The translations under genes and the position numbers were made by a program. DNA of 62,775 nt, counting the filler, from Candidatus Zapsychrus exili (GTDB lineage Bacteria > Omnitrophota > Gorgyraeia > Zapsychrales > Zapsychraceae): the NCBI GenBank assembly GCA_030765585.1. It is 5 parts of 5 records of this genome, joined end to end, with 100 filler letters (N's around TTAATTAATTAA, not from the genome) between each part and the next. Parts side by side here need not be neighbours in the genome. Positions count along the whole stretch, not along the records: positions 32,212 to 60,002 come from JAVCCJ010000022.1; 4 more parts are not named here. The stretch is one strand, 5' to 3'. Positions 13,733 to 60,245 of the stretch are shown here, piece by piece; the stretch's first letter is position 1, and each line of letters begins with the position of its first letter. The notes below the pieces were generated by a model. It was not told the DNA's origin. It saw only the letters and a list, made by a program, of their open reading frames with translations, and made no database searches.

Positions 13733-13832
13733 NNNNNNNNNNNNNNNNNNNNNNNNNNNNNNNNNNNNNNNNNNNNTTAATTAATTAANNNNNNNNNNNN
13801 NNNNNNNNNNNNNNNNNNNNNNNNNNNNNNNN
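13733..13832. other. Artificial contig linker
   Basis: N44-TTAATTAATTAA-N44, stops in all six frames. Confidence 0.98.
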
Positions 13833-42656: not shown

Positions 42657-42692
42657 TAGTTAGAGTAGATATTTTCACATCTCAAATTATCT

Positions 42693-44516: not shown

Positions 44517-44711
44517 TCAAGCACGTTTAGAAATCTTTACATTTTTGCAAATTATTAGTAAATTTAATTAATTGTAGTGTTAACAAAAGCTATAATTCTG
44601 CTATAATACTTTTAATAGTATATTTTAATAAGTTTTAGAACTTAACGCTATAGTAGCTCTGTTGTTACTTATGCATCAATTCGCACCTATAATTTAAAAG
44701 AGGATATAGCC

Positions 44712-45086
44712 ATGATCAAAAAAACCCTTATTCTTATTTCTTGTATATTTCTTTTATCGTCCTGTAGTGTTTATAAAGTCACATCTCAAGATATAACAGA
44801 CAACTATTACTCTTCTAAAGCCTCAACTAAAGATGTTGCTTATATTAAAACAATATCAAAACCTCATGAAGTCATAGGATACATTACTGTAAATGCTGAA
44901 AGGCGTCAGCCAATGGATGAGGTGTTGGAGAAAATAAAAAGAGAGGCTGCGATATTAGGTGGCGATGCTATTACAGATATAAAGACAGATGCAACAGGTC
45001 AATGGAAAAGTCTTCCAGCGCAAAAATTTATAGGAAATGCTTACGTAAGAGCTAACTTTACAGCGACAGTTGTAGCATTTGAATAG
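44712..45086 (+). CDS. Small lipoprotein (YbjQ-like fold candidate)
   Basis: Lipobox LLSSC, HEVIGYI...KREAAILGGDAI. Confidence 0.7.
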   Translation: MIKKTLILISCIFLLSSCSVYKVTSQDITDNYYSSKASTKDVAYIKTISKPHEVIGYITVNAERRQPMDEVLEKIKREAAILGGDAITDIKTDATGQWKSLPAQKFIGNAYVRANFTATVVAFE

Positions 45087-45124
45087 TATCTTCGGTGCCT
45101 GGCACCGTTTATTGGAGTATTTTT

Positions 45125-46210
45125 ATGACAATTTTTATATTATTAATTGTTTTATCAGTCGCAGGAATTGCTTTTGTCATTTTCACTATGAAAAAGGAAG
45201 AGCCTTGCGATGAGAGCGAAATCGCAGAAATATCTCCAGAGCAAGTTGAGACTACAAATAAATCAAGTTTATTAAATTTCTTATCGTTCGGAAAGAAAAA
45301 AGAAGACATAGTAGAGCCTCTATCTCTAACAGAAGATTCGCTAGAAGATTCAGATATTGGCACTGCTTCTTTAATGACGTCTCCTGTTGAAGAACTAAGC
45401 CAATCAGAGAAAATAATAGAAGAAATTGTGCAAGAAGAGGTCGCTTTACCAGAAGATAATACAGAAGAAAAAAAAACAAAACTAGAAGAACTTCTTAAAG
45501 AAAAAAATGCCGCACTAGAGGAACTTCAAAAGGCTCTTAACAAAGAACAAGAAAACAGAGAATCGTTTGACAAGGTAAAAGAAATACTTCAAAAGGAACT
45601 TATAGACACAAGAGAGAAGGCAAGAAAAGCAAAAAAAGAGTTAAGCCTAACAAGCGATGAAGGAGATCAATACGCAGAACAAATAGACGAACTTCAAGAA
45701 AAAGCAAATAACCTTGAAAGAAATTTAGAGGATAAGGATAAGGACATAGAAGAGCTCACAAGAAGACTTGAACAAAACAAACATAAGCAAGAAGCAGAAA
45801 AAGAAGGACTTAAAATAGTCTACGAAGAACCCATGAAAACTGAAGATAATATTATAGTTAGCGAAAAAGTAGAAGAAATAAAGCAGGAAGATTTGCCTGA
45901 AGTAACCGTTGTTACTGAGAGCGAAGAGCCTGACATTGATTTAACAAAACACAATGAGATAGAAATAATAAATACGGATGAAGTTTCAGAAGACATTGCT
46001 TCAAAAGAAAAAAATATTGTTGAGCAAGCAACTTCTGTTGAAGACGATAAAAAAGATCCTGTTATAGAAATAACAGATACGGACTTAAAAGAAGCTTCTG
46101 AAGAAGATAATACAAAAGAGGACGAACAAGAAGAAGAATCAGAAGAAGAACAAAATCCTGGCTTTCTAAAATTAAAACCTGATATTCTCAAAGAAGAAGA
46201 CAAAGAATAA
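45125..46210 (+). CDS. Membrane-anchored acidic coiled-coil protein
   Basis: N-terminal TM helix, long coiled coil, Glu/Asp-rich tail; ATG 45125 after GGAG. Confidence 0.7.
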   Translation: MTIFILLIVLSVAGIAFVIFTMKKEEPCDESEIAEISPEQVETTNKSSLLNFLSFGKKKEDIVEPLSLTEDSLEDSDIGTASLMTSPVEELSQSEKIIEEIVQEEVALPEDNTEEKKTKLEELLKEKNAALEELQKALNKEQENRESFDKVKEILQKELIDTREKARKAKKELSLTSDEGDQYAEQIDELQEKANNLERNLEDKDKDIEELTRRLEQNKHKQEAEKEGLKIVYEEPMKTEDNIIVSEKVEEIKQEDLPEVTVVTESEEPDIDLTKHNEIEIINTDEVSEDIASKEKNIVEQATSVEDDKKDPVIEITDTDLKEASEEDNTKEDEQEEESEEEQNPGFLKLKPDILKEEDKE

Positions 46211-46294
46211 TAACGATTATATAAAATCCCAAATATAAAACAACACCTGACTACCTATAAACAATAATCCCAAAAAAGCTACGAGGAATAATTT

Positions 46295-46861
46295 ATGAAA
46301 ATAAAAATATCTATAATTTTAACAGCAACACTATTATTCACATTAACATCAATATTCTTTACTAAAGAAGGAGAAACACAAATGTCAGAAGGCACAACAA
46401 TTGTTTTTGAAACAAATCAAGGCGAAATCGAAATCAAACTTTTCCAAGATATAGCACCTAAAACATGTGAAAATATGGTGGGTCTAATTGAAAAAGGATA
46501 TTATGATGGAATCATTTTTCATAGAGTAATAAAGAATTTTATGATACAAGGCGGCGATCCAACAGGAACAGGAAGAGGCGGAGAAAGTCTGTGGGGAGAC
46601 AAATTTGAAGATGAAGTAACTCCTGCTGCCGCATTTGACAAAAAAGGCATACTTGCAATGGCAAACGCTGGTCCAAATACAAACGGAAGCCAATTTTTCA
46701 TCACAACAGCTGCAACTCCTTGGTTAAATATGAACCATACTATATTCGGTGAAGTCGTTACTGGTTATGATGTCGTTGAAAAAATAGAAAATACACAAGC
46801 AGGGCCAGGAGATAAGCCAGTAGAAGATCAGAAGATTATAAAGGCATATATTAAGCAATAA
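46295..46861 (+). CDS. Cyclophilin-type peptidyl-prolyl isomerase
   Basis: [47 protein letters not shown]; hydrophobic N-terminal extension (alternative start 46382). Confidence 0.95.
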
Positions 46862-47193: not shown

Positions 47194-50100
47194 ATGATGA
47201 GTTCTATTTCAAAATCAAAAACAAGTTTAGCTTACAGAGTATTATGTTCATTTATAGCATTTTCAGTTGTATTTACTGCTGTTATTCCACCTTCATACGC
47301 TCAAAGCTATGTGAGTCTTCCGGCTCCGGGAACATTCGTAAACATTACGAACAGTTTCACCCCCACAATAGTAAAAGGGATAACAATTCATCCTGAAAAT
47401 CCTCTAGAATTCGATTTTATTGTTGATTCTGGTGATAATAAGCTAAAAGGGGAGCAATTAAAAGAAGAATCACTTAAACTCATCAAATACTTCCTTGCAA
47501 CACTTACCGTTCCTGAAAATGAACTTTGGGTCAATTTAAATCCATCCCAACCAGATAAAATAATGCCTGAGAAGCTTGGACATACTGAAATGGGACGTGA
47601 TTTACTTGCTCAAGACTATATATTAAAGCAATTGACAGCTTCTTTAATGCATCCTGAAGGAGAAACAGGTAAGGAATTCTGGAATAAGATATATAAAAGA
47701 ACAAAGAAAGAGTTTGGAACAACTGATATAAACACAGATACTCTAAACAGAGTTTGGATAGTTCCAAGCAGTGCGACCGTATATGAAAAAGATAACTCTG
47801 CTTTTGTACTTGAATCAGAACTAAAGGTCTTGCTAGATAAAGAATATCTTTCAACTAAAGAAGGCACTGCATTAGATAATTCAACTACTACTCAAATAAT
47901 AAAAGAAATCATCATCCCTGAACTAGAGCGTGAAGTAAATACAGGCAAAAACTTTGCTCTTCTAAGGCAAATATCAAATTCTATGATACTTGCTACCTGG
48001 TTTAAGATGAATCTAAAAGAATCTTTATTAGGCAAAGTATATGTAGATCAAAACAAAGTAACAGGAATAGATTTAGAAAACAAGAATGTAAAGCAAGAAA
48101 TCTATAATCAATACCTAGAAGCGTTTAAAACAGGCGTATATAACTATATAAAGGAAGAGTACAATTCAGAAACACAAGAAATCATACCTAAGAAATACTT
48201 CTCTGGTGGTATGGAGACAAAATGGAGCCCTAAAATAAATGTGGTTAATGAAGATACAGCTGATAGTGCTTTATTAGCACAAGCGGCTGATGTAGCAGGT
48301 AGTGTAAGTAACTTGAAGGTTAATCTTTATGATTTTGGAGCAGATGCAGATCTAGACCAAGCAATGGTGGCATCTAAAAAATTCATCGGTGCAACAGAAT
48401 ACACCACAGTCGAAGGCGAACTCTCAAGCATTCCTGCAAGCGCTCCGATAGACAATCCTTGGCCACAAGTAGTATCAAAGCCAACAGGCATAGCTATTAG
48501 TGGTATTGGCAGGATTGGAAGATTGCTTGTAAGACAAATAACTGATTACAATAACCCTAACACTGAAATCAAAGCTATTATCGGAACAGACGTATCAAGA
48601 GAGACAACTCAAGAAGGTAAATTAAATCTTCAGCTTAAATACGCAAAACAAATAACCGAAAGACTAGCAATTGATACAGCCTACGGAGAATTTAATGCTG
48701 AATTAGATTATGGCGTAGATGAAAATTCTGACGTATACATCACGGTAAACGACAAAAAAATACCAATAGTAAACAGAGAAAAGACTTCAGATTTATACAA
48801 ATGGTCTGACTTGGGAGTAGATGTTGTTGTAGAAGCGTCAGGCGCACTTAAAGATAAGAAGAAAGCAGGTGGACATCTAACAGCAGGTGCTAAAAGAGTT
48901 TTAATAGCAGCTCCTGGAGGATCAGACGTAACAGGAACTTTTGTTGTAGGTGTTAATGAAGGTGAATTTGATCCTAGAAATCCAGAACATGATATCGTAT
49001 CAAATGCATCTTGTACTACAAATGCAATTGCACCTGTAATGCAAGTATTAGGGAACATTGGTTTTCAAGCAGGTTCTCTAAACTCTACTCATGCTGTAAC
49101 AAAGAGTCAAGTACTTCTAGATGGAACAAATCTTAAAAAACCAGAACAAGGAAGAAGTGCTTTAAAGAACATTATAAAGACTTCAACCGGTGCTTCAAAA
49201 GCACTTAAGGCTTTAGGAAGAAAGCTTTGGTCTAGAATGAGTGGTTCAGCTTACAGAGTCCCTACTTTAACTGGTTCTGTTATTACATTAGATTTTAAAG
49301 TAGATGATAAAAACATGACAAAAGAACAAATGCTAGAAGCCTTTAAGACAGCTGCTGCAGGAGAACTAAAAGGTGTTATAGCAGTAGACGGAAGTTTATC
49401 TACGAGAGATATTATAGGAAGAACAGAAGGCGCTATAGTAGCAGAACAATCGGTTAAAGTTATAAACACAAACGATGGCTCATTAGTCCATATGCAAATA
49501 TGGTATGACAATGAATACGGATATACAACTCAACTTCTTAAAATGCTTGATGAAATGTCAGAAAAAATAGAAAAAGTTGAGAACGGAGAAGAAATAGAAG
49601 TAACAGAAAATATTGATGCAGCTATTCCTGCAGTTTTAACCGCAGATCAAATCGATGCTCCAGAAATACCTGAACTTTTAACACAAATAAGAGAAGCTCA
49701 AAAAGATCTTAACAGACCAATCAGACTTGGTGTAAACGGTCCTGGAAGAATAGGAAGACTTATCGTAAGACAGCTAATTGGTAATCCTAATTTTGATCTA
49801 AGATCTATTCCTTACGATTCTCCTTCAGTGCTAGCAAGATTACTTAAAGATGACACTGTTCATGGAAAAATAAAAGGAAAGATAGAATTTAATGATGCAG
49901 AAAGATGGCTAAGTGTAAATGGTAAGAAAATAGCAATACCAAAGAGAGTTAGAACACCGCAAGAAACAAAATGGGAAGACTATGATGTTGAAATGGTTAT
50001 AGATGTAACTGGTAAATTTACAACGCAAGAAGACTTATCTGGCCATTTAGGTCAAACTGTTAAAAAAGTAATTATTGGTGCACCAGCAAAAGGAGATATA

Positions 50101-53100
50101 GAAGGTACTTTTGTATTTGGTGTTAACGAAAACACCTATGATGGCGCAACACAAAACGTTATATCAAACGCATCTTGTACTACAAATGCACTTGTTCCTG
50201 TAGTAAAAACAATTAAAGATGTATTTGGAATCAAAGCTGGTTTTATGACAACAGTGCACGCTGTTACATTAAGCCAACCTAGCCTAGATTCAAAACAAAA
50301 GAAACCAGATCGTGAACCAGCATCAGGAGCAAACATAACTCTTACATCAACAGGTGCTGCAAAAGCAGCAGGACTAGTTTTACCTGATGTAAAAGGACTT
50401 CTAGACGGCGATGCTCTAAGAGTTCCTGTTGAAGATGGTTCTATGATAAAACTATCAATTGAAACAGAAAAGCCTGTAAAAGATGTTGATACATTAAACA
50501 ATGTTTTAGCACAAGCAGCTGATGGATACCTAAACGGAATACTAAAAGTAGAAGAGATGGAAGTGTCTTCTCAAGTTATAGGCCAAAGACTAGGTGCTGT
50601 TGTTGCAAAACAAGGAACAGCTGTTGAGCAATTACCTAATGGCGGAAGTCTTATAACTCTACATATATTCTATGACAATGAAGCTGGATACACATCACAA
50701 CTGCTTAGAATGGCACAACATGTTGGAGAAGGTATGGTAGGGGTAGCTGACCAAGCAATGGTGGCATCGACGGATAAGATGACGTTAGAAGACATTGATG
50801 ATGCAGTTTATAATGGAAATCCTGTTATGATCCGTGTTGATTTTAATGTTCCTCTAGATGAAAATGGAAAAATTACAGATGACACAAGAATAAGAGCAGC
50901 AATACCAACAATCAAATACGCTTTATCTAAAAACGCTAAAGTTATTATAGCTTCTCATATGGGCCGTCCAAAGGGAGAAAGAGTAAAAAATCTAAGCTTA
51001 GCTCCTATTCGAGAAAGATTAAAAGAACTGCTTAAAGATTCTGCAGACTTTGTGCACTTCAGTGATGAGTTTATGACAGCTGCAGACGCAGAAGATTTTA
51101 TTGATAATGTCATGGACTCAAAACAAGTTCTTCTTTTAGAAAACACAAGATTTAATGAGGGCGAACAATCTAAAGACCCTGAAATCCGTCAAGCTTTTGC
51201 AGATAAAATGTTTAAAGGAATTAAAGCATTTATTTTAGATGGATTTAGCGTAGCTCATAGAGCAGAAACATCTGTTGTGATGGCGCCTAATGATATCCCT
51301 AAAGCAGCCGGTTTTCTTGTTGCTGAAGAAATAAACGGTTTACAGAAAATAGTAAATGAAGTTGATCTTGTTGTTATGGGAGGCAGTAAGGTATCTGGCA
51401 AGATTAATATAATCGAAAATCTACTTAAAAAAGAAACATTAAAGCATGTCTTAATAGGTGGAGCAATGGCAAATGCATTCCTTGTTGCAAAAGGGATGAA
51501 ACTTGCTAAAGGCAATGCTGGTATTGCGCCAGAAGAAGTAAAAATAGCTAAAAAACTTCTTAATTCAAAAAATGCAGATAAAATAATTCTTCCTTTAGAT
51601 GTTGTTGTTGCAAAAAGCTTTAGTAAAGACGCAGAGTATATGACAATAAACGTATCGGAAGACGCAGGAAAATACGCAGTAAAACAAATACTTGAACCTG
51701 ATGCTTGGCTATCGCCAACTTTTGTTGATACAGGCTCTGGAATGACCCTAATAGAACCATCAATCCAATCACCAGAGTTTCTTAAAGATTGGATAGCAGT
51801 TGATATCGGATTCGCAACTAGCGCCTATTATAGTAGCTTAATCGAAGAAGGAAAGGTTATGTTCTGGAATGGTCCAATGGGAGCATTTGACAAATTTTTA
51901 TTTGCTCAAACCGGAACTAGAGCTATTGCTCGTTCTTTAGAAAAAGCAAAAGGCTTTACTGGTGCAGGCGGAGGAGACTCTGTTGCAGCTATTAATCAAT
52001 TTGGTATCAAAGGTATTGACTATATATCTAAAGCAGGTGGCGCTACACTTGAATTCTTAGAAGGCAAAGATCTTCCTGGAATAGTTGCTTTATCGGATAA
52101 AGCTGACCAAGCAATGACAACTAGAAATTTATCTACACCTTTATCAAAAGCTATTTTTGAAGCTCGCGTAGCACATGATTCTCGAGGAAGAGAAACAGTT
52201 GAGGTTGAAATGGCTATACCTGCAATAATAGCTCCAGTAACACTTACTCTAAAAACTACTGGTATTGTTCCAGCAGGCGCGTCAAAAGGAAAAGCAGAAG
52301 CTGTTACAGTAGGCGTAGAGCAGGCAATAAAAAACATAAACGAAGTTATTACCCCTGCTTTACAAAAAAGCGGTCTTAATATGAATAAACATAAAGACCT
52401 TATTAAAGCAGATAGGCTTATCGCAAAATTAGCAGGTGATAATTTTAAAGACCTTGGAGCAGATGCAACTGTTCCTGTATCTTGGGCTTTATGGAGAATG
52501 GCTGCAGAGTCACAAGACATGAGCCTGGGTGAGTATATCAAAAAATACGAACCAGATGCTTATGATAATGCAAATGACCGCGTAAATTTCTATATGAATA
52601 TTTACAATGGTGGCTTACATGCATTAAAAGATGGCGAGACTCTTGGTGTTGATAGAATTGATACTCAAGAAACTATGCTTGTAATAAAAGCTGCTACTTA
52701 CCAAGAAGCTATCGAAATGGGTGACAAAATTGATGCTGAACTTAAATTGATTTTACTAGGTGAATTTGAGATTGAAACAATAACAAGAGCTGACGAAGCA
52801 GGTTTCTCAGTAAAAGGCTTAGGCGACTCTGATAAAGCAATAGAGCTTGTTTTAGAAGCAATAGAAGAAGCTGGTTATACTCCAGGAAAAGATGTCAAGC
52901 TTGCTTTAGATGTTGCTGCTAGCTCTTTTTATATAGAAAAAACTGGTATGTATGATTTTCAAGGAGAAATGAGAACGTCAGAGTGGATGGTAGATTATTA
53001 TGTAGGACTAGCCAAGAAATATCCTGGTGTTTTCATATCTATAGAAGACGGTCTAGAAGAAGATGGTTGGGAAGCTTGGGCATCTCACGCAAAAACAATG

Positions 53101-56100
53101 CAAGAACAAAAAGTTGAAACCATTGGAGACGATTTATTCGTTACTCAAAAAACACGTTTCCAAAAAGGAATAGAAGAAAAATCTGCTTCTGCTATTTTAA
53201 TTAAGGTAAACCAAAATGGAACAATGACAGGCACCTTAGATGTTATCAAAATGGCAAAAGAAAATGAATTAAAATGGGTCGTATCACATCGTTCAGGTGA
53301 AACAATGGACGCTGGAATAGCTGATCTGGCTTATGGCACCAACGCATTTGGCCTAAAGACTGGCGACCCTCAACCAAATTATGATTTTGGTGAAGGCGGA
53401 CAATATGAAGGTAAAGATCTTGTCAGAAGAGCTAAATACCAACGCATGGTTGAGCTAGAAAAAGCAGCAAACGATAAAGCGATGGTGGCAGAAATTAATA
53501 ACCTTCTTAGCCAAAGCGATATATCAACAAATGGTCGCGTAGGCCTAACCTTAGCTTTTGGACGTAGAGTGTTTAGTTTGTATTCTGAAAAGCTAGGCAA
53601 AACTTTGCATGTAAAAACTATAGGTGCAAATAATGAAATAGAATGGGCAACGATTGTAAAAGGAAATAAATTAAACGAAGAATATACTTATAATATGGAA
53701 AAAAATGATGGGGCTACGGAAGTATCAGAAGATGTCTATCCGCTCATCAAGACAAGCCTTATAGCTCTGAACCTAGTAGCTGACCAAGCAATGGTAGCAA
53801 ATACAGCTTCTGAGCTAATCAACAACATATCGAGCTATATAACTTACAACAAAAATACTAATGCCTTTGAGGTGACTGACATAAATAAACTGCTCAATGA
53901 AGGCATAGACTATCTTGTTAACGAGTCTGCACTAAGCAAGAATATAATTGTCAAAAAAGCAGCAGCTCAAATAATAATGGAAGTAGGTGAATTAATAGGC
54001 ATTCACTCTTCATCTATGCACGATGTATACGCAGCAAGAAGAAGAGGCGAAATACTTCAAAAGTCAACTATTCCTGCAAACAACATTCGTGGAATGGCAT
54101 ATGATACAGCAAAGACCGCATTTGAAGTTATGATCGATAACAATGCTTCAGGTATCTTTGAACTTGCAAGATCTGAAAGAGGATATACAAAACAACCTCT
54201 TTGGGAATATTCAGCTTCTATTTATGCTGCAGCTATTAAAACAGGATATAGAGGAAAGATATTCCTTCAATTAGATCATGCTCAAATAGATAAAAAGCTT
54301 TATTTTGGATTTGGAGGCAAAGAAGCTAATCCAGAAAAAGCAATTCAAGATATCAAAGACTTAATAAATGAGGCTGTTTCTGCAAGGGTTTACAACATTG
54401 ACATTGATGCATCGTCCTTGATGATCGCAGGAAACTTAAAGAAAAATAACGCAACTCATAAAGAGGCAATAAGTTTAAAATTAGATAACCTTACAGAACT
54501 TAGCGGTAATGACCTAGTAGCTCTAGATGCAAAGAAAATACTTGCCCGCCAAACATTCAACATCCGTGAAACCGTCAATCTTACAAAATACATTCGTGAC
54601 CTTGAGAAAAAACTCAATATACCTGTAACTATTGCAATAGGTGGCGAGGATATGCACGTTGATCAGGATGTATATAGTACTGAACATTCAGTTGAAGTGT
54701 TCTGCCAAGGGTTAGAAAAAGCTTTAATTGAAGCAGGAATCAAAAAAGGCAAAGGTGTCATCAAAATAAGCGTTCAGAGTGGAACTGGCCATGGTGGAAT
54801 TACAATTGCTGGCGTTCCAGTCGGAGAAGCAGCTATTCAAATCAATCTAACAGATCTAAAAGCTATTACTGAAATGGCTCAAAGAGGAGAGTTGGGATCA
54901 ACAATAGCTGGTGTTGTTCAGCACGGAGCTTCAACTGTACCTGAAAAATTCTTTGCTGAATTTGTAAAACACTTAGTAATTGAGGTGCATTTAGCAACCG
55001 GATACCAAAATCAACAACTTCGTGCAATACGAGAGAATGATCCTTCATTATATCAACTATTAAATGTATCTATGGTTGATGTCGCCAGTGGATTATGGAT
55101 TAAAGAAGATGGCACAAGCGGAGAGATTATAACAAATATGATCAAATACCTTAAATACTATTATAAAAAAGCTTATGGTAAAGCAGCAAAAGATACAGAG
55201 CTAGCTAGTATCTTAAAAAAAGCTATTAATATAGTTGAAGGACAAAAGAATTGGGCTAAGTTCTCTGAGGATATCATAAAAGAGGTAGGAGAGTTAGAAG
55301 AAGGAAAGTTAAACAAAGACATAGACCAAATTGCACGTTTTGCAATTGCTGAGGCTTTTTATCGTTCATATAAAAAAGTCTTTGGACTTGAAAAACACGC
55401 TCTTTGGAACATGCGTTCAGATCTAAAAAAAGCAATAGCAGACGCCCTTAAGAAAAACTTTTCATCTATCTGGGTACCTTTAGGATTCAATAATATTAAA
55501 GGAGATGTTGATAAGGCTGCAAAAATCATTCCTCTTTATCCAAAGCAAAGATCAATTGAGCTAAAACAAGCTATGGTGGCAGCAAATATTACGCTACATG
55601 ACGGATTTACAAAGAAGAAAGCTCGAGCATATATAAATAAAATAACTCTGATGTTCACAGTTCACGGTCAAGAATTTAAAGATACAATCTTTTTTGACCA
55701 AAAAATAGATGGAAGAGGTTATTTTTTAGGTTTCGCAGAAATTTTGGATGATAGAAGAACTCTTGTTTTTGAAAATAAGTTTACTGCAATTTTGCCACAA
55801 ACGCTTGAAGAATACGGTAATATTAGCGATAATACGAGAAAAATAAAAAATTACCTATCAACAAGTATTGCCAACATTAAAGATCAGGCAATGATTACAC
55901 CTGGTGGTATTGATCTTAATCCTGCCTACCTGGATATGCAAATTAAACGTGATGGAGCTGGTATTCCGCTATCACTTGATATGCAATCAATAGAAACAAT
56001 GAGAATTGAAGGGTTTATACCTGTTATTATAAATATCACTCCTATTAATAATTTCCCAATGCTTTTGGGGATGAGAAATACAGCTGACGATGAAGGGGAG

Positions 56101-56169
56101 AAAGAAACACAAAAATTAAGCTCTGCTAAAGAGCTTGAACCAATGGATAAAGCTCACGCACTTATTTAA
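47194..56169 (+). CDS. 2991-aa polyprotein: signal peptide, N-domain, GAPDH, GAPDH, PGK, enolase, orphan module, class II FBP aldolase, orphan module, GGIDLNP C-domain
   Basis: Single uninterrupted ORF with GGAGG SD; family motifs for each enzyme; modules separated by (D/K)-x-A-M. Confidence 0.92.
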   Translation: MMSSISKSKTSLAYRVLCSFIAFSVVFTAVIPPSYAQSYVSLPAPGTFVNITNSFTPTIVKGITIHPENPLEFDFIVDSGDNKLKGEQLKEESLKLIKYFLATLTVPENELWVNLNPSQPDKIMPEKLGHTEMGRDLLAQDYILKQLTASLMHPEGETGKEFWNKIYKRTKKEFGTTDINTDTLNRVWIVPSSATVYEKDNSAFVLESELKVLLDKEYLSTKEGTALDNSTTTQIIKEIIIPELEREVNTGKNFALLRQISNSMILATWFKMNLKESLLGKVYVDQNKVTGIDLENKNVKQEIYNQYLEAFKTGVYNYIKEEYNSETQEIIPKKYFSGGMETKWSPKINVVNEDTADSALLAQAADVAGSVSNLKVNLYDFGADADLDQAMVASKKFIGATEYTTVEGELSSIPASAPIDNPWPQVVSKPTGIAISGIGRIGRLLVRQITDYNNPNTEIKAIIGTDVSRETTQEGKLNLQLKYAKQITERLAIDTAYGEFNAELDYGVDENSDVYITVNDKKIPIVNREKTSDLYKWSDLGVDVVVEASGALKDKKKAGGHLTAGAKRVLIAAPGGSDVTGTFVVGVNEGEFDPRNPEHDIVSNASCTTNAIAPVMQVLGNIGFQAGSLNSTHAVTKSQVLLDGTNLKKPEQGRSALKNIIKTSTGASKALKALGRKLWSRMSGSAYRVPTLTGSVITLDFKVDDKNMTKEQMLEAFKTAAAGELKGVIAVDGSLSTRDIIGRTEGAIVAEQSVKVINTNDGSLVHMQIWYDNEYGYTTQLLKMLDEMSEKIEKVENGEEIEVTENIDAAIPAVLTADQIDAPEIPELLTQIREAQKDLNRPIRLGVNGPGRIGRLIVRQLIGNPNFDLRSIPYDSPSVLARLLKDDTVHGKIKGKIEFNDAERWLSVNGKKIAIPKRVRTPQETKWEDYDVEMVIDVTGKFTTQEDLSGHLGQTVKKVIIGAPAKGDIEGTFVFGVNENTYDGATQNVISNASCTTNALVPVVKTIKDVFGIKAGFMTTVHAVTLSQPSLDSKQKKPDREPASGANITLTSTGAAKAAGLVLPDVKGLLDGDALRVPVEDGSMIKLSIETEKPVKDVDTLNNVLAQAADGYLNGILKVEEMEVSSQVIGQRLGAVVAKQGTAVEQLPNGGSLITLHIFYDNEAGYTSQLLRMAQHVGEGMVGVADQAMVASTDKMTLEDIDDAVYNGNPVMIRVDFNVPLDENGKITDDTRIRAAIPTIKYALSKNAKVIIASHMGRPKGERVKNLSLAPIRERLKELLKDSADFVHFSDEFMTAADAEDFIDNVMDSKQVLLLENTRFNEGEQSKDPEIRQAFADKMFKGIKAFILDGFSVAHRAETSVVMAPNDIPKAAGFLVAEEINGLQKIVNEVDLVVMGGSKVSGKINIIENLLKKETLKHVLIGGAMANAFLVAKGMKLAKGNAGIAPEEVKIAKKLLNSKNADKIILPLDVVVAKSFSKDAEYMTINVSEDAGKYAVKQILEPDAWLSPTFVDTGSGMTLIEPSIQSPEFLKDWIAVDIGFATSAYYSSLIEEGKVMFWNGPMGAFDKFLFAQTGTRAIARSLEKAKGFTGAGGGDSVAAINQFGIKGIDYISKAGGATLEFLEGKDLPGIVALSDKADQAMTTRNLSTPLSKAIFEARVAHDSRGRETVEVEMAIPAIIAPVTLTLKTTGIVPAGASKGKAEAVTVGVEQAIKNINEVITPALQKSGLNMNKHKDLIKADRLIAKLAGDNFKDLGADATVPVSWALWRMAAESQDMSLGEYIKKYEPDAYDNANDRVNFYMNIYNGGLHALKDGETLGVDRIDTQETMLVIKAATYQEAIEMGDKIDAELKLILLGEFEIETITRADEAGFSVKGLGDSDKAIELVLEAIEEAGYTPGKDVKLALDVAASSFYIEKTGMYDFQGEMRTSEWMVDYYVGLAKKYPGVFISIEDGLEEDGWEAWASHAKTMQEQKVETIGDDLFVTQKTRFQKGIEEKSASAILIKVNQNGTMTGTLDVIKMAKENELKWVVSHRSGETMDAGIADLAYGTNAFGLKTGDPQPNYDFGEGGQYEGKDLVRRAKYQRMVELEKAANDKAMVAEINNLLSQSDISTNGRVGLTLAFGRRVFSLYSEKLGKTLHVKTIGANNEIEWATIVKGNKLNEEYTYNMEKNDGATEVSEDVYPLIKTSLIALNLVADQAMVANTASELINNISSYITYNKNTNAFEVTDINKLLNEGIDYLVNESALSKNIIVKKAAAQIIMEVGELIGIHSSSMHDVYAARRRGEILQKSTIPANNIRGMAYDTAKTAFEVMIDNNASGIFELARSERGYTKQPLWEYSASIYAAAIKTGYRGKIFLQLDHAQIDKKLYFGFGGKEANPEKAIQDIKDLINEAVSARVYNIDIDASSLMIAGNLKKNNATHKEAISLKLDNLTELSGNDLVALDAKKILARQTFNIRETVNLTKYIRDLEKKLNIPVTIAIGGEDMHVDQDVYSTEHSVEVFCQGLEKALIEAGIKKGKGVIKISVQSGTGHGGITIAGVPVGEAAIQINLTDLKAITEMAQRGELGSTIAGVVQHGASTVPEKFFAEFVKHLVIEVHLATGYQNQQLRAIRENDPSLYQLLNVSMVDVASGLWIKEDGTSGEIITNMIKYLKYYYKKAYGKAAKDTELASILKKAINIVEGQKNWAKFSEDIIKEVGELEEGKLNKDIDQIARFAIAEAFYRSYKKVFGLEKHALWNMRSDLKKAIADALKKNFSSIWVPLGFNNIKGDVDKAAKIIPLYPKQRSIELKQAMVAANITLHDGFTKKKARAYINKITLMFTVHGQEFKDTIFFDQKIDGRGYFLGFAEILDDRRTLVFENKFTAILPQTLEEYGNISDNTRKIKNYLSTSIANIKDQAMITPGGIDLNPAYLDMQIKRDGAGIPLSLDMQSIETMRIEGFIPVIINITPINNFPMLLGMRNTADDEGEKETQKLSSAKELEPMDKAHALI
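48484..49557 (+). other. GAPDH domain 1 within the giant ORF
   Basis: ISGIGRIGR, VVEASG, SNASCTTN, THAVT, STGA, YRVPT, WYDNEYGY. Confidence 0.92.
49714..50724 (+). other. GAPDH domain 2 within the giant ORF
   Basis: GVNGPGRIGR, DDTVHG, SNASCTTN, VHAVT, STGAAKA, LRVP, FYDNEAGY. Confidence 0.92.
50776..52098 (+). other. Phosphoglycerate kinase domain within the giant ORF
   Basis: RVDFNVP, DDTRI, SHMGRPKG, LLENTRF, GGAMAN, WNGPMG, GGGDS, LEFLEGKDLPG. Confidence 0.93.
52117..53460 (+). other. Enolase domain within the giant ORF
   Basis: DSRGRETVEV, VPAGAS, NGGLHA, LDVAAS, SIEDG, GDDLFVT, LIKVNQ, SHRSGET, LKTG. Confidence 0.93.
53794..55563 (+). other. Class II (Zn) fructose-bisphosphate aldolase-like domain within the giant ORF
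   Basis: TIPANNIRG, IFELARSE, LQLDH, IDIDAS, SVQSGTGHGG, VQHGAST, EVHLATGYQN. Confidence 0.85.
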
Positions 56170-56192
56170 TACAACATCAAAATTATCCATTG

Positions 56193-56245
56193 AAAAACCC
56201 CGGCATTACTGATCAATTAAATTGACCAATAATGCCGGGGTTTTT
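56193..56245. terminator. Intrinsic (bidirectional-type) terminator after the giant gene
   Basis: AAAAACCCCGGCATTA...TAATGCCGGGGTTTTT, 16-bp arms. Confidence 0.85.
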
Positions 56246-56298
56246 ATTTGCCTTAAATTTCTACCATAACTGTCAGTACGAGCCAATTTATTAGCTAA

Positions 56299-56379
56299 GA
56301 TTGCTTCGTCAGCTTGATTCAGGGGTCAGGCACCTGTAGATTTCTTTTAGGTGCCTGACCCCTTCTTCCTCGCAATGAC
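56299..56379. repeat. REP-like element GATTGCTTCG...CTCGCAATGAC with nested 15-bp inverted repeat
   Basis: Inner AGGGGTCAGGCACCT (56321-56335) / AGGTGCCTGACCCCT (56349-56363). Confidence 0.65.
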
Positions 56380-56403
56380 AAAAGAAATCAAAACAACAAA
56401 TAA

Positions 56404-56442
56404 GAAATTGCCGCGTTCGCCTTCGACTCACTCACAATAACA
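56404..56442. repeat. Degenerate REP-like copy, inverted partner of 57458-57497
   Basis: About 31/40 identity to the reverse complement of 57458-57497 by manual alignment. Confidence 0.6.
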
Positions 56443-56805
56443 ATGTTTTGTCATATTTTATCTATTTTGCCGCTCTATCACTACTATTTTATCACTTTTA
56501 GCACATCTCAATAGACAGGGGAGAGATAACTATATATGGCTCAAGGTCGCTCTCTAAGCGCTTCTTTGACTTATCTACTAGTAAGAATACATAACTATTT
56601 GTTACTGTTTTATAGAGAATAATACTATATACGCCTACAGCAATACTAGATTAATTATATGTTCACAAATGTAAAAGAAGTGTCTGGATTTTTTAATTAT
56701 TTATATTTCCGGTAAGTCTAAACGAGTTTATCCACAGGTCAATTTAAAAACTACATTAAAGCATTGGGGCACAACAGCTTAAGGCGCCTTTTTCTCATTT
56801 CACCA

Positions 56806-56833
56806 AGTTAACATAAGATGTATTATAGGAAGT
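56806..56833 (-). other. dif-like XerC/XerD recombination site
   Basis: Minus strand ACTTCCTATAA-TACATC-TTATGTTAACT; 11-6-11 layout close to Firmicutes dif (ACTTCCTA(T/G)AA N6 TTATGTAAACT) and the E. coli XerD arm TTATGTTAAAT. Confidence 0.7.
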
Positions 56834-56873
56834 TGCGTAGGTAAGCAAATATATGTGTAACTATATCAAAAAC

Positions 56874-57314
56874 CTATGTTTTTATAGATTCTTCTGTACT
56901 TATTTGATGCTTATGGCGGGTTGAAAAGTTTAAAATTTGTTTGCGAATGTTTTCTTCTGCTTGTTGTGCAGAAATATTTTCTGTAAATGTATCTTTCTTT
57001 GGCAAACTTCTTTGTCTTAAACCAACTTGTACATCACCAACACGAACTCTAATTGTTTTACCATTAACAAGCGCATCTGCAATAATTTTTCGACCTTGTC
57101 TAAGTATTCTACCAAAGCTTGGACGCGACAATCCCATTATTTGCGCTCCTTCTGACTGGTCATAACCCTGATAATCAGCTAATTTTATAGCCTCAAACTG
57201 ATCTACTAGCAACTGCGCCTCATCAGGCCTTCCTGGCTTACCACGAGGACTAAATTGGGCTATACTAGGCATTTCCTGCACATATCTAACCTTTTTACGT
57301 CTACCTTTATTCAT
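56874..57314 (-). CDS. DUF134 family putative DNA-binding protein
   Basis: GRRKKVRYV...FSPRG, FEAIKLADYQGYDQSEGAQIMGLSRPSFGRIL...ADALVNGKTI; GGAGGT SD. Confidence 0.88.
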   Translation of the reverse strand: MNKGRRKKVRYVQEMPSIAQFSPRGKPGRPDEAQLLVDQFEAIKLADYQGYDQSEGAQIMGLSRPSFGRILRQGRKIIADALVNGKTIRVRVGDVQVGLRQRSLPKKDTFTENISAQQAEENIRKQILNFSTRHKHQISTEESIKT

Positions 57315-57344
57315 TATATAACCTCCATTTAATATATATTTATT

Positions 57345-57421
57345 ATAAGCACATGCTCATTTAAACGTACCACTTCTTATGAGCATATGCTCATTATAAG
57401 TCTATGGTTTATTTATTGCAA
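57345..57421 (-). promoter_or_regulatory. Sigma70 promoter with two palindromic operators upstream of the DUF134 gene
   Basis: TTGCAA(57421-57416)-17 bp-TATAAT(57398-57393); perfect palindrome ATGAGCATATGCTCAT 57379-57394 and 14/16 copy 57345-57360. Confidence 0.7.
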
Positions 57422-57457
57422 GAAATAATACGTTTTTTTAGCATCCCTCTCATCTTT

Positions 57458-57497
57458 TGTCGTTGCGAGTGAATCAAAGGCGGGCGGCGGCAATCTC
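57458..57497. repeat. REP-like element TGTCGTTGCGAG...GGCAATCTC
   Basis: Same family as 56299 and 56404 copies, opposite orientation. Confidence 0.6.
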
Positions 57498-57530
57498 AAG
57501 AAAGAATTGTCTGTTATGCTGCCAAACGAT

Positions 57531-60002
57531 TTAAGATTTAATTGCTTTGGAAAGTTCTAGCGTTTGGACTTCATTCGGGCTATCGTCTTCGACTGCGCCC
57601 AATAATAAAGGTAGGTTTACGACAGGTGTAATGCTGAAGATTACAGGAATTAGACCATTTATCTCAATATTCTCTAAATCGCCAGTATCAATATCAAACT
57701 CTTGACCCTCCCCTCTTATTTGAAGGTCTATTTTGTCTGGATTTAGGTTAATACCACCGACTTCTTTATCCGTCAGCATTGCTTTATCTTCCATTACAGG
57801 GTCTTCTCTCTTAGCTTTAAAAGCCAACATATAGCTTTTATATTGTTCTTTCGCAATACGCTTTTCTGTATATGATTTTATCCATTTCTTAGAGGCATTT
57901 AAACCTTTTAAAATATCAACGTTTTTATTGTCCTGCGGAAAAGCATAAACTTTAACCTCTAGTTCAAAATTAGGAAAATATTTCTTAAAAATTCTCCCCA
58001 TTATTGTACGAAAAAATATTTGATTAATTGTAATTTCATCTTCTTCTAAATCCTCAATAAACTTATTATCAACGATTTTAAAAAGCTTTGCCTCATCTGC
58101 CATCATTGCTTGATCAACTAAGACTGATTCCTCCAAAACCGGTTTTCTTATTTTTCCGTTTGCTTCAAAACCGCTAAAAGTATAATTTACATCCATCAAA
58201 GCTTCTGTAAATATTTTTGTTTCTCTTCTGACCGGTTCAATCTTAAATTTCCAATCATCATATTTTTCCCAAAACTGAACAGTTAATCTTTTAAAAATAG
58301 GTTCCATATATTTCTTTCCTCTAAGCCTATCTTTAGTTCCATTGGTATCATTGCCCAAAGATACTAATCTAAAATATATGCTTTGTAGTCTTTTATGCTC
58401 TTCAACAGAAATACTAAAAATAAAGTCACCTTTAGAAATATTACCTCCCAATATATATTCTTCAAATTTCTTAACCTTAACATATGCACTCCCTATTTTT
58501 ATATTGCCAGCAATTATATTTTCTAACTTATCTACTATAGCAATATGATGAAAAACCCCTTCTCCCCTATCAATTTCTAAAGACAAAAATACTATTTCAT
58601 CTAAATGTATAACATCTGTTTGCTCATAGAACTTCTCTATTATTTGTTCTCTAGTGCCGGCAAGTTCTACCACTTTTGGGTCTTTATCCCAACTTAACTT
58701 AGCGTTAATTTCACGATTAAGCTTTTTAAATTCTTCCCAAAGCTGTGTGCCTTCTAAAAGAGTTTGAAATGATAATAAGCTTGGCTTCTCTACCAACATT
58801 GCATTATCTTTCTCCGGAAACAATTCCTTCTTGTCTTTATTGGCTTTTATGACTTCCTTTAAGAATATTGTCTTAAATTTAGCTTCACTTAAATTATAAT
58901 CATTAGTCTTAAAATCTAAATTTTTATGCGCAATACCATTTAAGCCAGAAAGATTGAGCATTGTGTTAAACATATTCATAAACAAAGAATAGTTTCCGTG
59001 CTTAAAAATAATGAAGTAGTCACCCTCACTACTTGTAGATATCTTATAAAAAAGACTAGATATCCAATCAACTGTTTCTTTGCCCAAAAATCCCTTCTTA
59101 TCACTTAAGAAAACAAAATGTTTAAATACCTTGTAAATATTTATTCTCATATCATGGGTTGTTTTAAGAGAAAGGCTTTCAACGTAAGATAAAAATTCAT
59201 CCCTAAGCGAACCTTCTCCGCCAAATAATACAAAATATTTATCCTTCCAAAACATTGGTAAGGTTCTAGGTATATAAAAAGTCTCTCCGTCTACACCTGT
59301 AAGTAAGATTTTATGCAAATAGACTAGTTCTTTATCAAATTCTTTAAGAGAAAGAAGATCCTCTGTTTTAATTCTTTTTAAAAGCCTTAAAAAAGCAATA
59401 CGAACCTGTTTTTGGTTTTCAAAATAATTTTCTTGATTCTTCTTCGTATAAACTTCGGTACTATACTTAGCATATTCTAAGCTAAAACCCTCTTCACTCT
59501 TTATTACACTATCTTGAGACTTTGGGTCCCTTACAAGCTCTTTCCACTTTGTAAGAGCAGCTTCTTTAACATTAAAATTAGGCAATGCTTCCTCTATTTC
59601 AGCTAGTTCATCAGAAGATATAAAATCAAATATGTTGTAATCGGATTGCTCTGTGCGAATCTTGTTTGGTACGAAAAAACTAAACAAACTTTGTCCTGTC
59701 AACATTGCGCTATCGCCCCCTGCTTTTAATAAAACTGACTTAAGATTATTATGCTGCTCATACAAAGCAATTCCGCGGTCTCCATAGCCTATATCACCCC
59801 AAGGAAGCAAATTAAAAACATATTTTAAATCTTTCGACCAAGACATAGCTTTTTGATCCATCACCACGTACTTTACATTTTCTAAGAAATATTTATGATT
59901 GTTAATAACACCATCGAAAGCCTTCATAAAAAATAAATCAATTTCTTTATTGATAAGCTTTTCAGCTAAAATATTGTCCGACATAATATTAGGGTCACTT
60001 TC
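57531..60002 (-). CDS. C-terminal part of a second D-x-A-M modular protein (5'-truncated by contig end)
   Basis: Frame open to contig edge (ESDPNIMSDN...); DSAM, DNAM, DQAM, DKAM; C-terminus GGINLNP...DLQI...INGLIPVIFSITPVVNLPLLLG homologous to the giant ORF. Confidence 0.85.
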   Translation of the reverse strand, partial: ESDPNIMSDNILAEKLINKEIDLFFMKAFDGVINNHKYFLENVKYVVMDQKAMSWSKDLKYVFNLLPWGDIGYGDRGIALYEQHNNLKSVLLKAGGDSAMLTGQSLFSFFVPNKIRTEQSDYNIFDFISSDELAEIEEALPNFNVKEAALTKWKELVRDPKSQDSVIKSEEGFSLEYAKYSTEVYTKKNQENYFENQKQVRIAFLRLLKRIKTEDLLSLKEFDKELVYLHKILLTGVDGETFYIPRTLPMFWKDKYFVLFGGEGSLRDEFLSYVESLSLKTTHDMRINIYKVFKHFVFLSDKKGFLGKETVDWISSLFYKISTSSEGDYFIIFKHGNYSLFMNMFNTMLNLSGLNGIAHKNLDFKTNDYNLSEAKFKTIFLKEVIKANKDKKELFPEKDNAMLVEKPSLLSFQTLLEGTQLWEEFKKLNREINAKLSWDKDPKVVELAGTREQIIEKFYEQTDVIHLDEIVFLSLEIDRGEGVFHHIAIVDKLENIIAGNIKIGSAYVKVKKFEEYILGGNISKGDFIFSISVEEHKRLQSIYFRLVSLGNDTNGTKDRLRGKKYMEPIFKRLTVQFWEKYDDWKFKIEPVRRETKIFTEALMDVNYTFSGFEANGKIRKPVLEESVLVDQAMMADEAKLFKIVDNKFIEDLEEDEITINQIFFRTIMGRIFKKYFPNFELEVKVYAFPQDNKNVDILKGLNASKKWIKSYTEKRIAKEQYKSYMLAFKAKREDPVMEDKAMLTDKEVGGINLNPDKIDLQIRGEGQEFDIDTGDLENIEINGLIPVIFSITPVVNLPLLLGAVEDDSPNEVQTLELSKAIKS

Positions 60003-60102
60003 NNNNNNNNNNNNNNNNNNNNNNNNNNNNNNNNNNNNNNNNNNNNTTAATTAATTAANNNNNNNNNNNNNNNNNNNNNNNNNNNNNNNNNNNNNNNNNN
60101 NN
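60003..60102. other. Artificial contig linker
   Basis: N44-TTAATTAATTAA-N44. Confidence 0.98.
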
Positions 60103-60104
60103 AT

Positions 60105-60245
60105 ATTATTAATCTGCTTTAAAAATATGGCATCACTCATTTGATGTGGGATAAAGACAAGTATCCAGAATGGGATTTATCATTTCTTAATTTAACTGAA
60201 GTTGTTTCATCTGGGTCTATTTCGCTTTATAAATTTAATTATTGA
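60105..60245 (+). pseudogene. 3' remnant of an upstream gene (IINLL*KYGITHLMWDK...LYKFNY)
   Basis: Reads like the C-terminal tail of a membrane glycosyltransferase; in-frame TAA at 60120 may be a contig-edge base error. Confidence 0.3.

Follow-up and report, generated by a model that had tools for sequence, protein, structure and literature searches.

A head-tail carrier protein family with glycolytic cargo and short delimiter motifs in Candidatus Zapsychrus exili and related Omnitrophota

Introduction

How should a protein be understood in which several glycolytic enzymes are strung together behind what reads as a signal peptide, in a genome that also encodes these enzymes as stand-alone proteins? 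The question is raised by a 62,775-nucleotide stretch of the genome of Candidatus Zapsychrus exili (Omnitrophota; GenBank assembly GCA_030765585.1), which is referred to here as the window. Positions 32212-60002 of the window are a single contig, C80 (JAVCCJ010000022.1), on which two convergent genes were found: one at 47194-56169 on the plus strand, encoding P0001 (2,991 amino acids, aa), and one at 57531-59984 on the minus strand, encoding P0002 (817 aa). A first-pass annotation of the window had described both as members of a protein family whose N- and C-terminal handles are fixed and whose cargo can be exchanged, in which the tetrapeptide D-x-A-M stands at module boundaries and is a candidate protease site. 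We find that such a family exists in this genome and in public data, that its N-terminal head and C-terminal tail are shared, and that its cargo modules are set apart by short delimiters. The head-tail carrier family and its architecture are almost certainly real, and the interpretation of the delimiter is graded below.

Organisation and cargo of P0001

The P0001 frame is open without a break over 8,976 nt and encodes, in order, a signal peptide, a head, a series of cargo modules and a tail. The putative Sec-type signal peptide, read from the sequence, covers aa 1-36 and ends in PPSYA/Q (47194..47301, plus strand, as are all features of P0001), and the head domain covers aa 37-339 and ends in KKYFSGG (47302..48210). 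Delimiter 1, an exact motif (DQAM, aa 388-391; 48355..48366), is followed by a cargo module (48367..50748) consisting of two complete copies of type I glyceraldehyde-3-phosphate dehydrogenase (GAPDH), at about aa 433-788 and 843-1172 by Pfam and NCBIfam. Both copies retain the catalytic cysteine of SNASCTTN, and no delimiter lies between them. Delimiter 2 (DQAM, aa 1186-1189; 50749..50760) leads into a phosphoglycerate kinase (PGK) module (50761..52104; Pfam PGK at aa 1201-1625, E 2e-102), and delimiter 3 (DQAM, aa 1638-1641; 52105..52116) into an enolase module (52117..53472), in which Pfam and NCBIfam place Enolase_N at aa 1657-1782 and Enolase_C at aa 1800-2059.

Beyond delimiter 4 (DKAM, aa 2094-2097; 53473..53484) lies a 99-aa module with no Pfam match and no paralogue in the genome (53485..53781). 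Delimiter 5 (DQAM, aa 2197-2200; 53782..53793) precedes a 590-aa module (53794..55563) with a weak match to class-II fructose-bisphosphate aldolase at aa 2456-2616 (E 9.6e-07; 29 bits, the cut-off being 25.5); a sequence search of the PDB with this module returned no match. A degenerate delimiter, KQAM (aa 2791-2794; 55564..55575), introduces a 102-aa module without a Pfam match (55576..55881), and delimiter 6 (DQAM, aa 2897-2900; 55882..55893) stands three residues before the tail, GGIDLNP...GFIPVIINITPINNFPMLLG, which continues into an acidic extension (55903..56166). The first-pass annotation had counted seven D-x-A-M motifs in P0001, each at a domain boundary. Six of them, at aa 388, 1186, 1638, 2094, 2197 and 2897, are exact, while the one at aa 2791 reads K-Q-A-M-V-A and is an extended motif that lacks the aspartate.

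A Pfam scan of P0001 (E<=0.01) returned six families, every one of them glycolytic, and NCBIfam gave a similar result; neither database matched the first approximately 390 residues, the last approximately 95 residues or the two modules of about 100 aa. The genome also encodes stand-alone GAPDH, PGK, enolase, PFK and PGI, to which the cargo enzymes are 24-37% identical. By this measure, the cargo enzymes are second, divergent copies. The GAPDH, PGK and enolase copies of P0001 look catalytically intact. A stand-alone cofactor-independent phosphoglycerate mutase is encoded on the same contig as P0001 (34324-35526, plus strand), and it represents the step between PGK and enolase, which has no counterpart in the P0001 cargo.

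The delimiter motif

P0001 contains six exact D-x-A-M motifs, compared with 0.43 expected from its composition, and P0002 contains four, compared with 0.05 expected. Across the family members of this genome, a longer consensus emerges at 81 sites, D-x-A-M-[VLIMT]-[ATSVG]-[DE], in which x is mostly K, Q, N or E. This extended form was counted 80 times among the 32,364 residues of the family and 13 times among 577,560 residues of background, an enrichment of about 110-fold. Several of the 13 background motifs are in open reading frames (ORFs) that continue family genes, and four are in a giant protein of 9,937 aa. At the 81 sites, the codons for aspartate (GAT/GAC) and alanine (GCA/GCG/GCT/GCC) vary, which indicates that the constraint acts at the level of the protein.

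With regard to placement, none of 51 motifs in 12 members of this genome lies inside an annotated domain (chance 2e-12), and for 21 of the 51 a domain edge is no more than 25 aa away, a total that none of 10,000 random placements attained; the spans used in this comparison were entered by hand from domain searches and alignments. The proposed enrichment at domain boundaries was borne out in these members. Among 230 homologues, the first motif follows the head at a median distance of 57 aa and the last precedes the tail at a median of 27 aa. The methionine of the motif had also been said to lie close to the start of the free enzyme, and this is the case for two modules of P0001: it is found 8 aa upstream of the position that aligns with the initial methionine of the housekeeping enolase, and 12 aa upstream of the start of the Pfam model for PGK. 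The lead-in of the first GAPDH is 39 aa.

D-x-A-M, the delimiter of the first description, is strongly over-represented in 120 homologues, with 83 occurrences observed and 1.07 expected, but it is not universal. A second form, (A/S/T)-S-S-P-(V/I/L), occurs 152 times in the same proteins, with 6.1 expected. D-x-A-M alone is found in 39 of the 120, SSP[VILMA] alone in 51, both in 4 and neither in 26, and the family of this genome has 80 D-x-A-M and no SSP-type motif. A tree of 230 heads shows 30 changes of motif form, as opposed to 41-63 in 500 label shuffles, a clustering that can arise from relatedness alone.

The most informative comparison is provided by enolase cargo that is 52-60% identical to that of P0001, in which a delimiter is retained at the same N- and C-terminal boundaries. 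These boundaries carry DQAM and DKAM in P0001, DAAM and NAAM in P0233, ASSPI and AASPL in P0240, ASSST and SSSPI in P0241, and ASSPV and ASSPA in P0263; P0259 has DKAM at the N-terminal boundary. In P0246, whose enolase is 59% identical to that of P0001, they read RAEAR and RSEAR. The string RSExR is absent from P0001 and occurs five times in the whole genome, never twice in one ORF. From these sequences, the delimiter appears to have at least two, and probably three, lineage-specific forms: D-x-A-M, (A/S)-S-S-P-(V/I/L) and R-S-E-x-R. Since the position of the enolase boundary is kept while the delimiter sequence switches, the delimiter has the properties of a recognition site read by a co-evolving factor, and the same observation counts against a hinge and against a fusion scar. 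We consider it very likely that the delimiter is a recognition site.

The giant 9,937-aa ORF mentioned above is on contig C24, and its four extended D-x-A-M motifs fall within 500 residues (aa 5768-6263). Giant proteins may therefore use the same delimiter.

The family in the genome and in public data

Searches with phmmer detected the head in 17 and the tail in 16 ORFs of the genome, with E values down to 1e-222 for heads among paralogues. About 17-21 family genes are present in this 2-Mb genome, and the family ORFs amount to approximately 97 kb, or 4.7% of it. Nine of the 16 tails are in the same ORF as a head, two lie beyond a frameshift from a head ORF (C73 and C119), one, that of P0002, connects to a head across a contig junction, and in the remaining four a contig end or an in-frame stop cuts off the upstream part. 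Head and tail pairing is near-obligate. The tails of P0001 and P0002, said to be homologous and directly preceded by the last motif, share 38% identity (phmmer E 1.6e-12 and 3.1e-12) and the consensus GGI(D/N)LN...G(F/L)xPVIxxIxP...LLG.

The cargo is as variable as the first-pass annotation had supposed. On contig C83, it comprises UDP-glucose pyrophosphorylase, phosphofructokinase and glucose-6-phosphate isomerase, with phosphoglucomutase beyond an in-frame TGA. Other paralogues carry PPDK-like PEP-utilising domains, guanylate kinase, methyltransferases, GNAT acetyltransferases and NUDIX domains, and further ones carry arrays of HTH domains and kinase-type ATPases (GHKL).

P0002 was found to be the C-terminal part of a second member. 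Its 817 aa are counted from the first methionine, and the frame stays open up to the end of the contig (57531..60002, minus strand). The delimiters were confirmed at exactly the positions first given: DSAM (aa 91-94; 59703..59714), DNAM (aa 393-396; 58797..58808), DQAM (aa 624-627; 58104..58115) and DKAM (aa 733-736; 57777..57788), all on the minus strand. The last of these stands six residues before the tail, GGINLNP...GLIPVIFSITPVVNLPLLLG (57534..57758, minus strand). Pfam and NCBIfam match none of the length of P0002, and among 20 related genomes its cargo has no homologue, the tail alone finding matches there. The end of C80 (59985-60002) and the start of contig C43 share 18 nt, and the P0002 frame runs from ...SESDPNI into MSDNIL... 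of a 1,084-aa head-bearing ORF on C43. Given this overlap and the continuing frame, P0002 is probably the C-terminal part of a member of about 1,900 aa that was split by assembly, not a head-less protein. The two convergent ORFs of the first description are thus confirmed, the minus-strand one as a contig-end fragment.

Several family genes are disrupted in the assembly. One gene each on C83, C39 and C67 has a single in-frame stop (TGA, TAA and TAG, respectively), that on C83 directly preceding the phosphoglucomutase module; these stops could be sequencing errors, marks of pseudogenes or sites of read-through. Two genes are split by frameshifts (C119, 3378-11319; C73, 6257-14507), and the frameshift on C119 falls within a PPDK-like PEP-utilising domain.

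In public protein data, a head search yielded at least 3,460 matches among 8,000 candidates scored, and a head profile matched 8,247 representative clusters at E<=1e-3 and 7,770 at E<=1e-10. The head was N-terminal in 150 of 150 among the matches listed. All named sources of homologues are Omnitrophota/Omnitrophica or metagenomes, and a search of the ESM Atlas returned only unnamed Omnitrophota clusters; three related loci carry the label 'uncultured Planctomycetales'. The head was present in 26 of 201 genomes sampled across the phylum, including eight of nine genomes of the same order and several families of the same class, and in none of the 63 genomes of the largest other family in the sample. 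The head-tail family is therefore confined to part of the Omnitrophota and is not a property of the whole phylum. One related genome has up to 26 tail matches.

Head, tail and their predicted docking

The head is well conserved, with 50-93% identity and 41 invariant columns among 57 aligned members; no histidine or cysteine is invariant. It matches no Pfam family even at E<=10, including the TraB/PrgY/GumN family in the case of the P0001 head, and no NCBIfam family. An AF2 model of the head is mixed alpha/beta (pLDDT 73.8, pTM 0.71). Fold searches with this model gave nothing at E<=1e-3 in the PDB by Foldseek, and no fold match by VIA, in which the best Z was 4.2 in the wide search and 2.7 in the second look.

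Structure prediction of head and tail together, which had been suggested at the outset, gave a consistent result. The predicted complex reached ipSAE values of 0.80, 0.81 and 0.81, compared with 0.00 for the best of three controls, and the runs share at least 52% of contacts. Among solved complexes, 116 of 157 attain this ipSAE mark, as do 2 of 215 mismatched pairs; these counts serve only as a rough guide here because our own alignments were used. In the predicted contacts, the GGIDLNP and PVIINITPI stretches of the tail contact a set of head residues, among them the invariant W112-V-N-L-x-P117, Q140, D141, K145, W188, P191, L257 and W269. The 60-residue predicted interface holds 14 of the 41 invariant head residues, where 8.0 would be expected (p 0.013). 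When a full member of 606 aa (L045, G129:C1) was folded whole, its tail region had a pLDDT of 65-83. In these models, the predicted docking site of the tail is a groove in the head, and the invariant head residues line it. The prediction supports binding and would fit a closed clasp within one molecule and chaining between molecules equally well.

A divergent, complete member of 426 aa (L042, G061:C1) consists of nearly the head alone. It reads ...YFSGGVDLRDIRL... directly after the head, where VDLRDIRL, following YFSGG, resembles the start of a tail, and it contains one SSSPA string. This tail-like segment suggests that the head formerly ran straight on into the first strand of the tail, and that the cargo found its place between the two by later insertion.

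In a fold search with the whole 606-aa member, the sole match was its small cargo (aa 446-534), which resembles periplasmic ferredoxin-like domains of PilO/GspM/GspL with Z 9.0 and an rmsd of 2.2 A for 81 residues. The fold is a common one, and the likeness is a hint only. A likeness to alpha pore-forming toxins of the ClyA family was also considered and not confirmed. These toxins are elongated helical bundles with a beta-tongue head; NheA, MakA/B/E, AhlB and SmhB appeared as weak Foldseek rows (E 0.12-0.8, TM about 0.1), and none reached Z 2 in the second look with the head model.

Export signature and cysteine depletion

All 17 heads of the genome begin, by sequence reading, with a basic stretch and a hydrophobic stretch, followed by x-[FYL]-[AG]/Q. 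Cysteine accounts for 0.14% of family residues, compared with 1.19% in the rest of the genome. Of the four cysteines among the 2,991 aa of P0001, one belongs to the signal peptide, two are the catalytic residues of GAPDH and one falls in the aldolase-like module; the housekeeping GAPDH has six in an ORF of 335 aa. Depletion of this kind is typically seen in proteins that have to pass through the periplasm unfolded, or that function in oxidising surroundings. On these sequence features, the family proteins are likely to be exported.

Discussion

The explanation that we consider best, with confidence somewhat above even, is that these are Omnitrophota-restricted exported carrier proteins whose delimiter is read by a lineage-specific factor, most likely an endoprotease. 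The carrier plan would comprise a cleavable Sec-type signal peptide, a head of about 300 aa, a string of cargo modules and a tail of about 60 aa. Docking of head and tail could create one composite unit with the cargo looped out, or head-to-tail chains of molecules. The protein would pass the inner membrane by Sec and then travel unfolded or through an oxidising space. A lineage-specific factor would read D-x-A-M-[VLIMT]-[ATSVG]-[DE], or A-S-S-P-V or R-S-E-x-R in other lineages; as an endoprotease, it would free the modules and remove head and tail after export. That the delimiter is actually cleaved is less assured than that it is recognised, and we put it forward tentatively, as a candidate site with chances a little below even. 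We regard as decidedly unlikely a more elaborate form of this explanation, an outsourced glycolysis in which cysteine-free polyproteins would be exported by Sec with head and tail acting as a clasp, closed or chained by strand donation, and a lineage-specific protease would release active enzymes outside the cell or in attached prey, as part of a predatory or parasitic lifestyle.

Several observations weigh against the carrier reading. The protease searches gave no candidate, and the three motif forms have no obvious cleavage logic in common. Both D-x-A-M and SSP are missing from 66 of 230 homologues, many of which are partial sequences. No gene family recurs beside 24 family ORFs, and the CPBP/Rce1-like protease and the cyclophilin encoded upstream of P0001 have no counterparts beside family genes in seven related loci. 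Head residues show no clear co-variation with motif form, the best column being D versus E, in an independent-pairs test that is underpowered. The case for export consists of the sequence reading and the cysteine depletion, and the cargo includes NAD-, ATP- or Fe-S-dependent enzymes (radical SAM in homologues), which are ill-suited to the periplasm. Finally, the tail partner in the predicted complexes has a pLDDT of 44-57, under 50 in one run, so that the tail's own fold is uncertain.

The delimiters could instead be docking or hinge peptides, used by a chaperone, the translocon or an anchoring partner, of an exported multi-enzyme scaffold that remains intact and channels substrate from GAPDH to PGK to enolase, possibly as a head-to-tail polymer. 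Consecutive pathway steps do adjoin in P0001, and related proteins combine PGK, TPI, enolase, PPDK and GAPDH; the predicted head-tail docking permits closed loops or chains; no protease emerged from the neighbourhood searches; and both GAPDH copies share one module with no delimiter between them. However, a strict motif of four to seven residues is not needed for a hinge, and the motif brackets head and tail exactly, a placement that trimming would fit better than a hinge. The absence of phosphoglycerate mutase from the P0001 cargo would also interrupt channelling from PGK to enolase. We judge the intact scaffold to be unlikely, though it deserves serious consideration. It is quite improbable that the hydrophobic N-terminus is an uncleaved anchor, tethering a second glycolysis to the membrane, either at its cytoplasmic side or within an internal compartment. 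The cargo is cytoplasmic in type and cofactor-dependent, which would suit such an arrangement, and a caution is given for giant proteins in the available part of West-Roberts et al. 2023 (bioRxiv 10.1101/2023.11.21.568195): if a transmembrane segment has been missed, the glycolytic domains could lie on the opposite side from the one predicted. Yet in 17 of 17 heads the hydrophobic stretch stands between basic residues and a conserved small-x-small/Q site, an eight-fold cysteine depletion that spares the catalytic cysteines is unexpected in cytoplasmic enzymes, and the genome already has housekeeping copies of these enzymes.

A motif devoid of function at the protein level, whether a fusion scar in which start codons were kept, a site of internal translation initiation or a place in the DNA where cassettes recombine, is highly improbable. 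The position of the methionine 8-12 aa before the natural starts of PGK and enolase would suit it, as would the clear shuffling of cargo between paralogues. The synonymous positions of the aspartate and alanine codons, however, vary freely, and Met-free forms (SSSPV or RSExR) occupy the same boundaries in other lineages. The motif methionine as an internal or retained start codon was rejected: a Shine-Dalgarno-like 4-mer precedes just 14 of 81 motif ATGs, whereas it is present at 458 of 872 putative real starts and, among internal methionine controls, at 207 of 987. There remains the suspicion that the giant ORF is chimeric or not expressed, as an assembly artefact or a pseudogene, to which we assign a negligible probability. 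The bin is a metagenome assembly of 129 contigs, several paralogues have in-frame stops or frameshifts, and the sequencing runs listed for the P0001 gene are two of DNA and none of RNA; against this stand the uninterrupted 8,976-nt frame, the intact catalytic motifs and the same architecture in thousands of homologues.

Long metabolic proteins have been noticed before in this phylum. The available portion of West-Roberts et al. 2023 (bioRxiv 10.1101/2023.11.21.568195) places glycolytic domains in giant 'Archaeovorins' that are predicted to be extracellular; it voices the suspicion of proteolytic processing and states that information on cleavage points is lacking. A preprint on complete Omnitrophota genomes (bioRxiv 10.64898/2026.06.07.730766) defines, in the part of its text that was available, 'multi-enzyme metabolic clusters' with metabolic content facing the periplasm or the outside, and the words 'cleavage' and 'linker' do not occur in that text. 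The available passages of the two preprints resemble our findings in the phylum, in the occurrence of TPI, PGI, FBPase, PGM, FBA and PPDK domains in long, outward-facing proteins, in the frequency of signal peptides and in raising the question of whether such proteins are cut. The proteins in these passages differ in that they have at least 10,000 aa, many transmembrane helices and SecA-like motors or dockerins, and the same passages describe no shared head, shared tail or delimiter motifs. P0001, with its 2,991 aa and no Pfam match to SecA or dockerin, has the glycolytic theme alone in common with the Archaeovorin- and Dockerin-type giants. In the accessible main text of Seymour et al. 2023, glycolysis is treated as ordinary cytoplasmic metabolism, and fusion, fused, paralog, signal peptide and secreted are absent as words. 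The tail strings GGIDLNP, GGIDFNP, GGINLNP and GGINLDP had no match in the literature searched, and no paper in it treats Omnitrophota, glycolytic and fusion together. No paper describing the head, tail and delimiter arrangement was found, in a search that covered the available text of both bioRxiv preprints. The system is undescribed within the literature searched, in agreement with the first impression that the architecture was uncharacterised.

P0001 was also compared with better-known modular secretion systems, among them the MARTX toxins to which the first-pass annotation had likened it. In MARTX toxins, conserved N- and C-terminal regions flank variable effector modules, which are released by cuts in short inter-domain linkers; these toxins leave the cell by type I secretion without a Sec signal peptide, their sequence includes glycine-rich repeats, and a cysteine protease domain is built into it. 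P0001, in contrast, has neither Peptidase_C80 nor RTX-type repeats according to Pfam and NCBIfam, has a Sec-type signal-like segment, and carries housekeeping-type metabolism where MARTX carries effectors. The CdiA/Rhs polymorphic toxins combine a conserved, secretion-competent N-terminal part with a swappable module and have a VENN or DPxGL motif at the swap point. In these proteins, the C-terminal module alone varies, no conserved tail follows it, and the cargo is a toxin with an adjacent immunity gene. No TPS, FHA, RHS or pre-toxin Pfam families were found in P0001, and its next gene encodes a DUF134 protein on the other strand. Type IX cargo and type V autotransporters combine a Sec signal with a conserved domain of about 60-100 aa at the C-terminus that serves in sorting or translocation, and autotransporter passengers are cysteine-poor. 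P0001 has no match to the Por secretion tail in a sequence-level comparison (Pfam to E<=10, and NCBIfam) and no beta-barrel or TPS Pfam family, and its head model is mixed alpha/beta and not a beta-helix. Unlike the C-terminal domains of both systems, its tail has an acidic extension in place of a terminal beta-signal and is predicted, from the models, to bind its own head.

The theme is wider than the head-tail family. A search with the PGK-enolase region yielded 33 long proteins, P0001 among them, with combinations of PGK, TPI, enolase, PPDK, GAPDH and aldolase, and one of them, of 4,793 aa, contains nearly the entire lower pathway. Of the 32 others, 16 were without this head and tail according to a crude regular expression, and all 16 are cysteine-poor. 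Exported, delimiter-punctuated multi-enzyme proteins seem to be a general theme in the Omnitrophota. Many of the 16 have another carrier plan in common, seen in P0234-P0239 and P0243-P0248 around PGK-TPI-enolase, with a signal peptide, a nearby 'LRP' motif, a C-terminal '...EFxNKV' and 0.06-0.42% cysteine. P0260, of 3,935 aa, has PGM, NUDIX, PGK and PGI domains and the source label Endomicrobiaceae; either it is mis-binned or it is a sign of similar proteins outside the Omnitrophota.

The family provides a concrete handle on the question, posed by the two preprints, of whether long Omnitrophota proteins are whole or cut. The handle comprises a defined plan of head, tail and delimiter, fixed positions at which the sequence switches between lineages, and an export signature on enzymes that are usually cytoplasmic. 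If the delimiters are cut, any such protein can be parsed into its products, and a new processing enzyme is indicated; if they are not, they represent a new kind of recognition peptide. Given that about 5% of a 2-Mb genome is devoted to the family, the organism would be investing heavily in a second, divergent enzyme set outside the cytoplasm, a point of relevance to the nutrition of these uncultured and probably host-dependent nanobacteria.

Assembly and gene neighbourhood

The metagenome-derived bin belongs to the Omnitrophota and has 2.04 Mb in 129 contigs. The window is composed of contigs C75, C80, C84 and probably others, joined by N (352 in all) with a short TTAATTAATTAA spacer. The joints are seen from position 13733 onward and at 60003-60140, and features that span them are not real. 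After P0001 comes the gene of the DUF134 protein, on the opposite strand. Upstream of P0001, a run of envelope-type genes occupies 41829-46861 on the plus strand and encodes a signal-peptide protein of 275 aa, a CPBP/Rce1-like intramembrane protease of 607 aa with YcdB/YcdC-like repeats, a lipoprotein of 124 aa, a membrane protein of 371 aa and a cyclophilin with a signal peptide. In the seven related loci, none of these genes proved to be conserved next to family members. Two public DNA runs, both labelled salt lake metagenome, contain 77% and 23% of the sampled words of the P0001 gene.

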